Shown here: in pieces, positions 29,443-44,717 of the stretch
How the letters are laid out: every line of letters begins with the position of its first letter
Position numbering within the stretch: position 1 is the first letter of the stretch
Sequence record: PZ445435.1
Origin: a phage
Reading direction: 5' to 3' (one strand)
DNA: 64,000 nt
The notes under the pieces: generated by a model
Database searches by the model: none
What the model saw: only the letters and a program-made list of their open reading frames with translations
Told to the model about the DNA's origin: nothing
Program-made: the position numbers and the translations under genes

Positions 29443-29799
29443 TTAAAAGAATTTAAATTTTTTCTTTGACCTTTTATTAAATGCATCTTGCAGTTGCATT
29501 GTAATACATTTTTCTACATGAGGAGCTAACTCAGCTTTTCTTTCTTGGTCAAGAACAGCAAAGTCCATTACGACTTTTCCATCAACCCAATCTAATTTTG
29601 TCACATACACAATGTGTGTAGAACCATCTTCTAGTTTAATGACAATCTCCTGGATAACATTTTCCATGGCAGATTTAATTATCTTAAGAGATTCATTAAA
29701 AAGACGTTCTTTTCTTTCTTCTTCCCCCTCCGAAGAGGGGGATTCATCGATAATTTCTAAATCTAAATCATCTTTACTCATTAAATTCTTCCATATCAC
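29443..29799 (-). CDS. 40: gp40-position protein
   Basis: 118-aa ORF between uvsX and 41; contains an internal GC hairpin. Confidence 0.55.
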   Translation of the reverse strand: MIWKNLMSKDDLDLEIIDESPSSEGEEERKERLFNESLKIIKSAMENVIQEIVIKLEDGSTHIVYVTKLDWVDGKVVMDFAVLDQERKAELAPHVEKCITMQLQDAFNKRSKKKFKFF

Positions 29800-30955
29800 T
29801 TAACTGCTCGAGGTCAGTTTCTAAATCAGCAGCTGATTTACTTTTACTTTCTGGAGATTTAAATTTTTCAACCTTTGAGTTAATCAATTCATCAACTTCA
29901 GCTTCAACAATTTCATTACTATCAATAGCACCTAACTGATAAGCACGTTTAATAGCATCTCGGAATGGTTGATGCTTAAATAAAGGACCCCAGAATGTAG
30001 TGCAGTTGGTATCTTTTGCACGCCAAGATTTTTCTTCGCGAATCATCTCGCCGGTTTCTTCATCAAGAAATTCACGAGCATACCAGCCATTTTTAGGTTT
30101 TACCACGAATCCTAATTCTAAAGCCATATCTAACAATCCAGAATAAGGATCGATACCACCGTCAAATTTAACATCAATAAAGAATTTACTTTTTTCTTTA
30201 ACGGTACGAGATTTTTCTACATTTAGAACAAATTGATACCCCTGAAGATCAGAACCATCTTTAATCTGACGCTTACCGATAATGAATACAGTATCAGCCG
30301 AATACATTACGCCTGTACCACCTGTCATCACGGTTTTACTAAACATTTCAATTGTTTCAATTGTATGGTTAACCGCAACACATGGAATATTTTTAATGCT
30401 AAAGTAAGGAGTAACAATACGGAATAATGACTTCAGTGATTTAGCACGAGTCATATCTGCCACAGATTTTTCATTCAAGGCATCTTCAGTTTCTTTCTTA
30501 GAAGCCATATTACCGATTGAGTCGATGAATACAATAACTTTTTCACCACGCTCAATATCTTCAAGCTGATTCACCATATCAATTTTCAGCTGTTCAACTG
30601 ACTGGATTGGCGTATGAATTACTCGTTCCGGGTCAACTCCCATGGATCGCAAATAAGCTGGAGTAATACCAAATTCGCTATCATAGAATAGACAAACCGC
30701 GTCAGGATATTTGTTCAAATACGCCGCAACCATAGTCAAAGACATATTTGATTTAAAGTGTTTAGAAGGCCCTGCGAAAATAGTTAAACCAGACTGCATA
30801 CCACCATCAATCGCACCAGAAATAGCAATATTAAGCATTGGGATTTTTGTACGGATTACATCCTTTTCATTAAAGAATTTAGATGTAGTCAGTTCAGCAG
30901 TCATTTTAGAAGTGGAAGCTTTAATCAAACGGGATTTTAAATCTGCAATAGACAT
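29774..30955 (-). CDS. uvsX: recombinase UvsX (RecA-like)
   Basis: 393 aa, Walker A GPSKHFKS; size matches T4 UvsX. Confidence 0.9.
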   Translation of the reverse strand: MSIADLKSRLIKASTSKMTAELTTSKFFNEKDVIRTKIPMLNIAISGAIDGGMQSGLTIFAGPSKHFKSNMSLTMVAAYLNKYPDAVCLFYDSEFGITPAYLRSMGVDPERVIHTPIQSVEQLKIDMVNQLEDIERGEKVIVFIDSIGNMASKKETEDALNEKSVADMTRAKSLKSLFRIVTPYFSIKNIPCVAVNHTIETIEMFSKTVMTGGTGVMYSADTVFIIGKRQIKDGSDLQGYQFVLNVEKSRTVKEKSKFFIDVKFDGGIDPYSGLLDMALELGFVVKPKNGWYAREFLDEETGEMIREEKSWRAKDTNCTTFWGPLFKHQPFRDAIKRAYQLGAIDSNEIVEAEVDELINSKVEKFKSPESKSKSAADLETDLEQLSDMEEFNE

Positions 30956-31032
30956 TCATTTTTTCCATAGGCATCATTATATTTTCCTCACTGGTTAAAG
31001 ATAGAGTAATTATAACACAATAAATTTAGGCA

Positions 31033-31881
31033 TTAATCAACTGCTATTGGATGAATAGCATTAAACTTATGAAATGCTTCTGATTTTTCTTTGCGCGAAA
31101 CACACATGCGAAGAACCTTTAATGGCTCGTCTTCTTCACCCAACGATTTTCGTTTTTCAATATTAGAAGTTTTCCAACGAGCTTGCTCTGGAAACTCTCT
31201 ATTGATTTGCTCAAGCGCTCTATTATGTTTAGAATTACTACGAATTGAACTGCACCCGCCAGGAGCTTGTGCTTTTCCAGATACAACCAGATATTTGAAC
31301 AAGGCCAAATGCGGATAACCTTGATTAATTAAATTGAGAAATGCATACATATCTTCACATAAATCAATTTTTCCATACCCAATTTGTTCTGTCGTAAGTT
31401 TTCCGAGGTCATACCATGTATTCGTGAATCCATATGAATTTTCACGATAATTACCCCAAGATGAAGTAATTTTAAAAATAGGTAGACGAGCATGGCCATG
31501 ATAATACCCGCAATCCATAGCATCTTCAACGTATTGAATCAATTCGTAGAATTGTTCACGGGTTAATTGATTGACTTTATCTACACAGCGACGATCATCT
31601 CTTTTTCGCATTGAGCTCATACGAATCGTAGTATCATCGTCAATCATCCAGATTCGTTGACCTGCATACATATCAGTAATTGCTTTACGAGTACCGGCAA
31701 TTCCGTTTACATCATCAGGAATAGTTACAATTTTAGCTCTAGACCCATAGGCGTCATAATAAGCTTTTTCTTCATGTTCACGTACTACAATATGAGGTTC
31801 ATAATCAGTCGGAAACATATCAAGGGCAGAAACTGCCCCTACGCGTTGATAGCTCGGAATTACGAATTGAATCATTTCCAC
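31033..31881 (-). CDS. putative glycosyltransferase at the beta-gt position
   Basis: 282 aa; DxD-like motif IWMIDDDTT; does not resemble T4 beta-gt as recalled. Confidence 0.55.
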   Translation of the reverse strand: MEMIQFVIPSYQRVGAVSALDMFPTDYEPHIVVREHEEKAYYDAYGSRAKIVTIPDDVNGIAGTRKAITDMYAGQRIWMIDDDTTIRMSSMRKRDDRRCVDKVNQLTREQFYELIQYVEDAMDCGYYHGHARLPIFKITSSWGNYRENSYGFTNTWYDLGKLTTEQIGYGKIDLCEDMYAFLNLINQGYPHLALFKYLVVSGKAQAPGGCSSIRSNSKHNRALEQINREFPEQARWKTSNIEKRKSLGEEDEPLKVLRMCVSRKEKSEAFHKFNAIHPIAVD

Positions 31882-32612
31882 TCACCGTTATAATCTTTTT
31901 TCACAATATGAGTTTCGCCAGTATTCCACCAATGATCAACCAAGTAAAAATGACGAGAATATACATGAAGACTTCCAACATTCCATATAATAGAACCTGC
32001 TTTATACTGACGAGTTGAATCGCCTGCATTCAAATCAGATACTAATTTATCTAATACGTATTTTTGCCATGCATAATCATTACGGAATCCGAAGACCACG
32101 TCATTTGAGCGCATGCTTACTACTGCATTGACTTTCTTATCACGAATCAGGTATTGTACTGTATTCGTACACATGAAATCTGACATGCCATCTTTATTGT
32201 AGTCAAACTGCATGGATGGACGAGTATAAATCATGATACCACGCCGAGAATCAGGATTTTGACCGAGTTCAGCTAAACACATATCATACTGGGCATAGTT
32301 ATCTTCTGACCAAATAGCCCAACCATAATTCGAGTTAATTTCGCCTTTAGAAGATGCTACCTGCTGCCAAATCTTTGGTGTTTCACCTGGAATATCTTTA
32401 ACAAACAAGCTCTTAGATTTATACCATTCAAGTTCACGCTGAATGTATTCATCATTAAGAGCGCCAAAAATAAACGGTTCATCTGCTACAAATGATGCGC
32501 CAATAATTTCAATAGTTTTAACGCCAGTTTTATCAACTACGAAATCTTTTTCCTTTAATGCAGTTCCCAAATAAAAACGGATTTCTTCAACTGTCATAGA
32601 GTCATTAATCAT
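31872..32612 (-). CDS. 42: dCMP hydroxymethylase gp42
   Basis: 246 aa, thymidylate-synthase-like; sequence matches T4 gp42 from memory. Confidence 0.9.
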   Translation of the reverse strand: MINDSMTVEEIRFYLGTALKEKDFVVDKTGVKTIEIIGASFVADEPFIFGALNDEYIQRELEWYKSKSLFVKDIPGETPKIWQQVASSKGEINSNYGWAIWSEDNYAQYDMCLAELGQNPDSRRGIMIYTRPSMQFDYNKDGMSDFMCTNTVQYLIRDKKVNAVVSMRSNDVVFGFRNDYAWQKYVLDKLVSDLNAGDSTRQYKAGSIIWNVGSLHVYSRHFYLVDHWWNTGETHIVKKDYNGEWK

Positions 32613-32619
32613 TTAAACC

Positions 32620-32769
32620 TCAATTGATACATTCATATTTAACTTGTAACAGTAATAAACTCCAACCTAAAATAATAGTTGGAATCATAAGAGGAACCGT
32701 TACACTATAGTATATACTTATTATAACCATCAAGATTAAAAGCAATGCTGCTATAATTTTGCTTTTCAT
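32620..32769 (-). CDS. small membrane peptide (49 aa)
   Basis: Hand-translated MKSKIIAALLLILMVIISIYYSV...; ATGA overlap with imm stop. Confidence 0.35.
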   Translation of the reverse strand: MKSKIIAALLLILMVIISIYYSVTVPLMIPTIILGWSLLLLQVKYECIN

Positions 32770-33415: not shown

Positions 33416-33664
33416 TCAAATGCAAGTAGTAATTACTCCAGTAGTGCTTATGCAGGTATTACCCATTTGCACACCTAAAGATCCATTTGTATTCACATGA
33501 AGATTATCATCAATTTTAACTGATATTTTACCATTAGTGTGAATAACGGTGCTAGATTCAATCACAGGTTGAGTATCATTTTCAACACTAACAAATGGAA
33601 CTGCTGCTAATGCAACTAAACAAACTGCTAAGCATCCCATAACAATTTTCATTTTATTCTCCAA
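33416..33664 (-). CDS. secreted/membrane small protein
   Basis: 82 aa, N-terminal signal-like MKIVMGCLAVCLVALAAVPFVSV. Confidence 0.55.
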   Translation of the reverse strand: MENKMKIVMGCLAVCLVALAAVPFVSVENDTQPVIESSTVIHTNGKISVKIDDNLHVNTNGSLGVQMGNTCISTTGVITTCI

Positions 33665-43514: not shown

Positions 43515-44717
43515 TTATTTTGTAATAATGTCAAACTGCTCTTTAAAGCAGAAGCTTGAATCTTGATGTTGATACAAAAATTCATAAGCTTTTTCGCGTT
43601 CACGGTCATAAAGAGCTCGGTCAGATGACAGTTCTTTAATACGTTCAAATGTTGATTCCATGTCATTTTCATCAAACCAAACGATACCGCTATCATGAGA
43701 AATTAACGGAGTATTATCAACACGGAATTTTAAATTTTCGCCAGTAGATTTCCAAAATACCGGAATTGTTCCACATGCACCAAGCTCGAGATGAGTGTAT
43801 TCTAAAGAACGTTGTAGATATTTTTTATCTAATTTACTCAGCTGATAACCAAATCCGGATTTACTCATGCGTTCAAGCATTTCGCTATTTACATAACGGT
43901 CGAGAATTTGCGTTGGCAAATTAGGAGCAATTTTAATTTGGTCTACTTGATGAAGACGATAATACTCGTATGGAATTCCTTTTTCTTTAATAGGAATGAA
44001 CGCTGGAGAACGTTCCAGACCTTCCATAATAGTACTCAATCCTGCAGGTTTAAGATGTTTTTCATGAAAATCAAACATCTGATAAAAGCCTTTCCATGTA
44101 GTAGTACGACCAATCCAACGGTTGATATTCATGTTAATTTCAGAAACATCTTTCCAGTAGGTTGATCGAACCTTCGCAATATCCATAGGAGGCTGAAAGT
44201 TATATACGGTCGGTGCTTCTTCAATATCATCAAACAGAGAAACTGTTTCTGGATACCATTCTTTCATTAAAACTTTATTAAAATCGCCATTATCAGAATG
44301 ACTAAAAATAACATCAGCTCGACGAACAGTTTCTTCTAATCCCAAATTTCGGCGCAAAGAAAGAGAAGAATGGTCATGCTGATAAACTACAACACGAACA
44401 GAAGGTTTAATGTTATCAATAATTTTTTTATAGTTATTAATAGTGTCTTCTTCAACCGAAGTAGCAGGAACTGAATTGATAATTAGAATATCACAATCAT
44501 TTACCAGCTTAAGTGTTTTATCATATTCTTTTGCCAATAAAACCGGAATTGAAAATGATTTATAATCATGCGCGCAATTACGAGTAAATGATTTATCTTT
44601 AGCATAAACCAAAGTTACTTCATGACCATTTTTAATAAACCAATCACGTTGCTCGAGTGAGAATTTTGTTACACCACAACCTTCAAGACCTCGAGCCATA
44701 AAAATACATACTTTCAT
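43515..44717 (-). CDS. agt: DNA alpha-glucosyltransferase
   Basis: 400 aa, MKVCIFMARGLEGCGVTKFSLEQRDWF...; matches T4 alpha-gt from memory. Confidence 0.85.
   Translation of the reverse strand: MKVCIFMARGLEGCGVTKFSLEQRDWFIKNGHEVTLVYAKDKSFTRNCAHDYKSFSIPVLLAKEYDKTLKLVNDCDILIINSVPATSVEEDTINNYKKIIDNIKPSVRVVVYQHDHSSLSLRRNLGLEETVRRADVIFSHSDNGDFNKVLMKEWYPETVSLFDDIEEAPTVYNFQPPMDIAKVRSTYWKDVSEINMNINRWIGRTTTWKGFYQMFDFHEKHLKPAGLSTIMEGLERSPAFIPIKEKGIPYEYYRLHQVDQIKIAPNLPTQILDRYVNSEMLERMSKSGFGYQLSKLDKKYLQRSLEYTHLELGACGTIPVFWKSTGENLKFRVDNTPLISHDSGIVWFDENDMESTFERIKELSSDRALYDREREKAYEFLYQHQDSSFCFKEQFDIITK

Follow-up and report, generated by a model that had tools for sequence, protein, structure and literature searches.

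A T2/T6-type beta-alpha glucosyltransferase gene between gene 42 and uvsX in phage DNA

The ba-gt gene and its neighbours

We analysed a 64-kb stretch of phage DNA (hereafter the window; PZ445435.1) taken from a genome of ~167 kb. An open reading frame had been predicted between uvsX and gene 42, and this arrangement was confirmed by the six-frame ORF list together with the match of uvsX to PHROG 97 and the thymidylate-synthase-like gene 42. The gene at this position, referred to below as ba-gt, and the features relevant to its interpretation are listed here.

29774..30955, minus strand: uvsX, 393 aa, downstream neighbour of ba-gt (PHROG 97, E 5e-110)
31033..31875, minus strand: ba-gt (ggt, TAGT) coding sequence, 280 aa from ATG (PHROG 842, PF20691, identity to Bas45)
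31351..31356, minus strand: E174-D175 (LCEDMY), D175 invariant and E174 nearly invariant in the alignment
31633..31641, minus strand: DDD (D79-D81), DxD-type motif in the N-terminal half, invariant in the alignment, block pLDDT 84-95
31872..31886, minus strand: junction with an SD-like GGTGAG (31886..31881), the ba-gt ATG and the gene 42 TGA, read from the sequence
31872..32612, minus strand: gene 42, thymidylate-synthase-like dCMP hydroxymethylase, 246 aa, directly upstream of ba-gt (PHROG 160, E 5e-67)
43515..44717, minus strand: alpha-gt, DNA alpha-glucosyltransferase, 400 aa (PF11440, E 2.4e-236, profile 1-355/355; PHROG 2888, E 4e-222)

The mechanical ORF extends over 31033..31881 on the minus strand and encodes 282 aa from a GTG start, which is the length originally predicted; the real start, however, is probably the ATG at 31875..31873, giving a protein of 280 aa. 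This shorter form is favoured because the ATG is the annotated start in Bas45, T2, teqskov, Bas44, 303Ecol101PP and EH2, and because of the SD-like motif and the ATGA overlap at this position. The start region reads GTG GAA ATG A, and the ba-gt ATG and the gene 42 stop codon (TGA, 31874..31872) together form a 4-nt overlap, ATGA, which is also annotated in the same six phages and through which translation of ba-gt is probably coupled to that of gene 42.

Gene 42 is named dCMP hydroxymethylase in the T6, T2, T4 and Bas45 records. On the other side, only a 77-nt spacer, identical in T2 and T6 and lacking segA, separates ba-gt from uvsX. Base composition is unremarkable, with a GC content of 0.375 for ba-gt and 0.36 for its neighbours. 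The alpha-gt of the window had been described as intact, and it indeed encodes 400 aa covering the full PF11440 profile.

Around ba-gt, a scan with a sigma-70 model, which leaves T4 early, middle and late promoters outside its range, returned 15 promoter-like sites in comparison to 10.7 ± 3.3 expected, and a terminator scan returned one terminator-like hairpin in comparison to 1.1 expected; neither count is above chance. No conclusion was drawn from these scans, as the counts are close to chance and the T4 promoter classes are unmodelled. Just past the ba-gt stop, at 31009-31032 on the minus strand, TGCCTAA is followed after 11 nt by TGTTATAAT, which we take to be a MotA-box-like TGCnTnA before an extended -10, i.e., a candidate T4-middle-promoter-like element for uvsX; this site was absent from the sigma-70 scan output. 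A 9-bp GC-rich hairpin, TAGGGGCAG-TTT-CTGCCCTTG, occupies 31821-31841 on the minus strand, within ba-gt codons 12-18 and ~35 nt past the start codon. It is kept in T6 and scored as terminator-like, with a count no higher than in shuffled sequences.

Two small reading frames on the minus strand were observed nearby. The first, at 32620..32769, encodes a 49-aa hydrophobic protein with two helices; it lies between imm and gene 42 and overlaps the imm stop. The Bas45 record lists it as hypothetical, and it is intact in T4, T2 and T6, whose records leave this 153-nt "spacer" unannotated. The second, at 33416-33664 between imm.1 and gene 43, encodes 82 aa and represents another small variable slot, being present in Bas45 and T2 (RB51ORF048), with no such ORF annotated in this interval in T4 or T6.

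Family, fold and close relatives

Analysis with hmmscan assigned ba-gt to PHROG 842, "beta-glucosyl-HMC-alpha-glucosyltransferase" (E 1.1e-89; residues 2-277 against profile positions 3-269/270), and to Pfam PF20691, TAGT (TET-associated glycosyltransferase), at 38.1 bits with a cut-off of 27.5 and coverage of profile positions 2-205/205. PF20691 was the only Pfam match at E<=1, and no generic GT2 or Glycos_transf_2 model was matched. Compared with the TAGT profile, ba-gt has an extra C-terminal extension of ~70 aa, which is poorly modelled. The PHROG name is easily misread: ba-gt transfers a beta-glucosyl unit to HMC-alpha-glucose and is not an alpha-transferase on beta-glucosyl-HMC; the literature describes the transfer of a beta-1,6 glucose to alpha-glucosyl-hmC.

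The proposal that the gene encodes the T2/T6-type beta-glucosyl-HMC-alpha-glucosyltransferase was borne out by 97.9-100% identity to the annotated genes of T6, T2, RB14 and Bas45. The 20 kb around ba-gt are 98.9% identical to BASEL phage PaulHMueller (Bas45), and the protein is identical over 280/280 residues to bas45_0152, "hmC beta-alpha-glucosyltransferase ba-gt". The T2, T6 and Bas45 genes share with the window gene the length of 280 aa, the order 42, ba-gt, uvsX and the ATGA overlap, with no difference of substance. The enzyme of EH2 differs by V50I only, while that of Geo carries six substitutions (M89I, R95K, C97R, V101I, A202S and Q203H). Three differences separate ba-gt from T2 ggt (R11H, V50I and P251S; 98.9% identity), the window protein having R11, V50 and P251, of which positions 11 and 251 correspond to the family consensus. 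In comparison to the T6 record, MH550421.1 (region 4001-4849 of the extracted T6 locus), there are four differences (Y40N, V50I, D55G and R106H) and a nonsense codon, with 98.2% identity to the T6 reading frame; the window protein has Q10, Y40, V50, D55 and R106.

The nonsense codon in the T6 record is an in-frame TAG at ggt codon 10, where the window has CAA (Gln), and the annotated T6 CDS is shortened to 261 aa from an internal Met. It may be either a nonsense mutation of the stock or a sequencing error, and it is odd to find it in T6, the reference phage for 72% gentiobiosyl-hmC.

Among 50,697 phage records searched by tblastn, 688 contain a ba-gt homolog. In 472 of these, mostly Escherichia, Shigella and Yersinia Tequatroviruses, the homolog is at least 90% identical, and ~200 records from Klebsiella and Enterobacter phages are 60-80% identical. 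A scan of viral contigs returned only five ba-gt loci, all 98-100% identical, which adds little beyond allele sampling.

The original prediction also implied a glycosyltransferase fold, and a GT-A fold next to CAZy GT2 was found for ba-gt in a predicted model; the resemblance to GT2 is at the level of fold only. The AF2 model is of moderate confidence, with a mean pLDDT of 69 and values below 50 for residues 126-151 and the C-terminus. A PDB sequence search returned two non-significant matches (E 1.6-2) and no solved structure of a relative, and the fold assignment therefore rests on the predicted model. The DxD-like motif IWMIDDDTT is present as previously noted, and its DDD codons (31641..31633) are invariant across the 10 homologs aligned, down to 32% identity. 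By analogy, D79-D81 would be expected to bind the diphosphate of UDP-glucose and a metal ion, and E174-D175, in parallel with GT2 enzymes, may be the region that supplies the catalytic base of an inverting GT-A enzyme. A beta product formed from UDP-alpha-glucose would imply an inverting mechanism, which fits a GT-A enzyme with a DxD motif.

Expected glycosylation and the contrast with T4

Based on these assignments, ba-gt would take the last step of a short pathway. The gp42 protein would make hmdCMP, and hmC would be built into DNA; alpha-gt would add a glucose, in alpha linkage, to 5-hydroxymethylcytosine in newly replicated phage DNA; and ba-gt, as a UDP-glucose-dependent, DxD-containing and presumably inverting enzyme of GT-A fold, would add a second glucose, beta-1,6, to alpha-glucosyl-hmC to give gentiobiosyl-hmC. 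The acceptor of ba-gt is thus a sugar already on DNA, which differs from a free glycan or lipid.

Identity, family, fold, synteny and the presence of alpha-gt were established in the present analysis, and activity is taken from the literature on orthologs. T6 without ba-gt loses gentiobiosyl-hmC, retains only alpha-glucosyl-hmC and becomes more sensitive to the glycosylase Brig1 (PMC11078745), and its DNA becomes a substrate of BapA (PMC13160076). Durham Tequatroviruses that carry alpha-gt and TAGT and lack beta-gt contain alpha-gentiobiosyl-hmdC and no beta-glucosyl-hmdC according to HPLC/MS; in EH2 DNA, ~1/3 is hmdC and ~2/3 gentiobiosyl, with a trace of the alpha-monoglucosyl form (PMC13390438). 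The composition of EH2 and the loss in T6 delta-ba-gt indicate that ba-gt extends alpha-glucosyl-hmC by a glucose in beta-1,6 linkage. The different hmC glucosylation pattern suggested originally is therefore documented in orthologs, both in T6 and in the Durham phages.

We are highly confident that ba-gt is a T2/T6-type beta-alpha glucosyltransferase acting after alpha-gt and giving gentiobiosyl-hmC, and the interpretation of ORF 31033..31881 as this known enzyme is supported. Since the window encodes alpha-gt and ba-gt and no beta-gt, a T6-like pattern is expected: mostly gentiobiosyl-hmC, some bare hmC, little alpha-monoglucosyl-hmC and no beta-glucosyl-hmC. The difference of V50I only from the EH2 enzyme is the basis for predicting a T6/EH2-like pattern. 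The ratios vary among near-identical enzymes (Geo in comparison to EH2, T2 in comparison to T6), and the T6-like proportion is accordingly a prediction.

In T4, a 351-aa beta-gt occupies the same locus, as had been stated, accompanied by segA, which the window lacks. T4 beta-gt and ba-gt have in common this genomic slot, UDP-glucose, the beta linkage and hmC-containing phage DNA as the target; however, T4 beta-gt is unrelated to ba-gt in sequence and fold, and the acceptor is bare hmC for T4 beta-gt but alpha-glucosyl-hmC for ba-gt. The T4 protein is longer (351 aa, gene GC 0.309) than ba-gt (280 aa, gene GC 0.375). The shared gene 42/uvsX slot is the one point in favour of a diverged T4 beta-glucosyltransferase, placing a single beta-glucose on bare hmC. 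Against this reading, the absence of resemblance between the two proteins noticed originally held in BLASTP, which gave only fragments of 8-35 residues at E 2.2 or above; PF09198 was not among the Pfam matches of ba-gt at E<=1; and the families differ, with PF09198 and PHROG 7922 for T4 b-gt and PF20691 and PHROG 842 for ba-gt. In addition, the fold of beta-gt is GT-B (PMC13216743) in contrast to GT-A here, and phages carrying ba-gt are without beta-glucosyl-hmdC. A tblastn search with T4 b-gt, covering the whole 64-kb window, gave a best E of 1.4 and detected no beta-gt. To our knowledge, no beta-gt is known outside the gene 42/uvsX locus. Based on BLASTP, the whole-window tblastn and the differences in family and fold, the diverged beta-gt was rejected, its probability being close to nil.

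Two further alternatives concern how much gentiobiosyl-hmC the enzyme makes and whether its donor and acceptor are those of T6. The ba-gt could be a low-activity enzyme as in T2, leaving the DNA mostly alpha-monoglucosyl-hmC with a few percent gentiobiosyl. The T2 gene is 99% identical, yet only ~5% gentiobiosyl-hmC is present in T2 in comparison to 72% in T6, and Geo-type phages are intermediate, with ~1:2:2 hmdC, alpha-glucosyl and gentiobiosyl in Geo DNA in comparison to ~1:0:2 for the EH2 type (HPLC/MS; PMC13390438); the presence of ba-gt alone thus does not set the gentiobiosyl proportion. However, the window allele has neither the T2-specific R11H and P251S nor the Geo-type substitutions, and it lies one conservative residue from the enzyme of EH2, the DNA of which is ~2/3 gentiobiosylated, so that this alternative appears improbable. 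A TAGT enzyme with another donor or acceptor, i.e., another sugar or direct action on hmC, is less probable again, to the point of being hardly credible. PF20691 is a broad family, and the 288 phage genomes (of 753) in which a TAGT homolog stands alone, with neither alpha-gt nor beta-gt, together with some TAGT homologs paired with beta-gt, suggest functional diversity (PMC13216743); this diversity nevertheless concerns distant members, and ba-gt is 98-100% identical to the T6, Bas45 and EH2 enzymes, the gentiobiosyl product of which is genetically or analytically documented.

The combination of alpha-gt and ba-gt assigned to this phage is the majority state in Tequatrovirus, and the alpha-gt and beta-gt of T4 are the rare exception. 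A published survey of 753 phage genomes found alpha-gt together with beta-gt in only 6, those of T4 and its close relatives, and most GT-bearing phages paired alpha-gt or beta-gt with TAGT (PMC13216743). The 3' region of T4 b-gt matched only 36 records, many of which are re-sequencings of T4, and this number, compared with ~472 close ba-gt records, agrees with the survey. The gene, its position, fold class and product have already been described for T2, T6 and the BASEL and Durham phages, and current understanding is unchanged, as the alpha-gt and ba-gt type is the one already described for the majority.

The hmC glycoform sets which host defences can act on a phage; examples are Brig1, which attacks alpha-glucosyl-hmC, Brig3/BapA, GmrSD/BrxU, and CRISPR or restriction-modification systems. 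The alpha-gt and ba-gt type predicts gentiobiosyl-hmC DNA, which is useful for predicting host range and sensitivity to defences.

The T2 allele and the T4 b-gt/segA junction

Comparison of the window gene (31033-31875) with T2 ba-gt (MH751506.1, positions 4286-5128 of the extracted T2 locus) showed that R11H falls in an invariant column of the family and P251S in a near-invariant one. H11 and S251 were seen in T2 only, the comparison covering 13 close orthologs and 9 homologs that are more distant, and the T2 ba-gt is identical in seven T2 records and SV76. It is possible, judging from this distribution, that R11H and P251S are the cause of the ~5% gentiobiosyl level of T2; if so, the window allele, with the consensus residues, would be a fully active T6-type enzyme.

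In T4 (NC_000866), the start of segA is immediately preceded by a copy of the ba-gt 3' end that matches at 24/25 nt (TTCATCGAATAGCAGTTGATTAATG; E 4.5e-7). This copy comprises the last seven ba-gt codons and the stop, and it matches 31031-31055 of the window (positions 6239-6263 of the extracted T4 locus). In a group of phages that includes PD112 and ESh36, segA follows a complete ba-gt with exactly the junction of T4, and b-gt phages that lack segA, for example Pu-Krd-SF1, match T4 no further than the 13-nt TTCATCGAATAGC. The T4 sequence is accordingly of the beta-gt type up to TTCATCGAATAGC and of the ba-gt and segA type from TTCATCGAATAGC on. Replacement of an ancestral ba-gt by beta-gt in the T4 lineage was considered and dropped after the comparison with Pu-Krd-SF1 and PD112; arrival of the ba-gt tail together with segA is more likely than such a simple replacement. 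With these three phages compared, T4 reads as a microhomology recombinant, and its junction looks like the product of a b-gt cassette joined at the 13-nt microhomology to a donor carrying the ba-gt tail and segA. The junction is consistent with segA homing in which a ba-gt phage was the donor and a b-gt phage the recipient. Neither the ba-gt tail nor the recombinant junction in T4 is mentioned in the 2026 NAR paper. Taken jointly, the two proposals, that the ba-gt allele of T2 itself causes the gap between T2 and T6 and that the T4 b-gt/segA junction is a segA-homing recombinant, are tentative, and we regard their both being correct as somewhat less probable than the contrary.

Downstream of b-gt, Pu-Krd-SF1 contains a short ORF with a hydrophobic product (MLGPLLLIIGLGLFAFLGLFVMLVRKERISSNSQTPS) and an SD-like GGTGGA (positions 1371-1480 of the extracted locus). 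This unannotated ORF seems to belong to the b-gt cassette. Its T4 version is frameshifted and truncated (MLGPLLLIIGLGLFAFWDFFCYID; positions 6290-6350 of the extracted locus).
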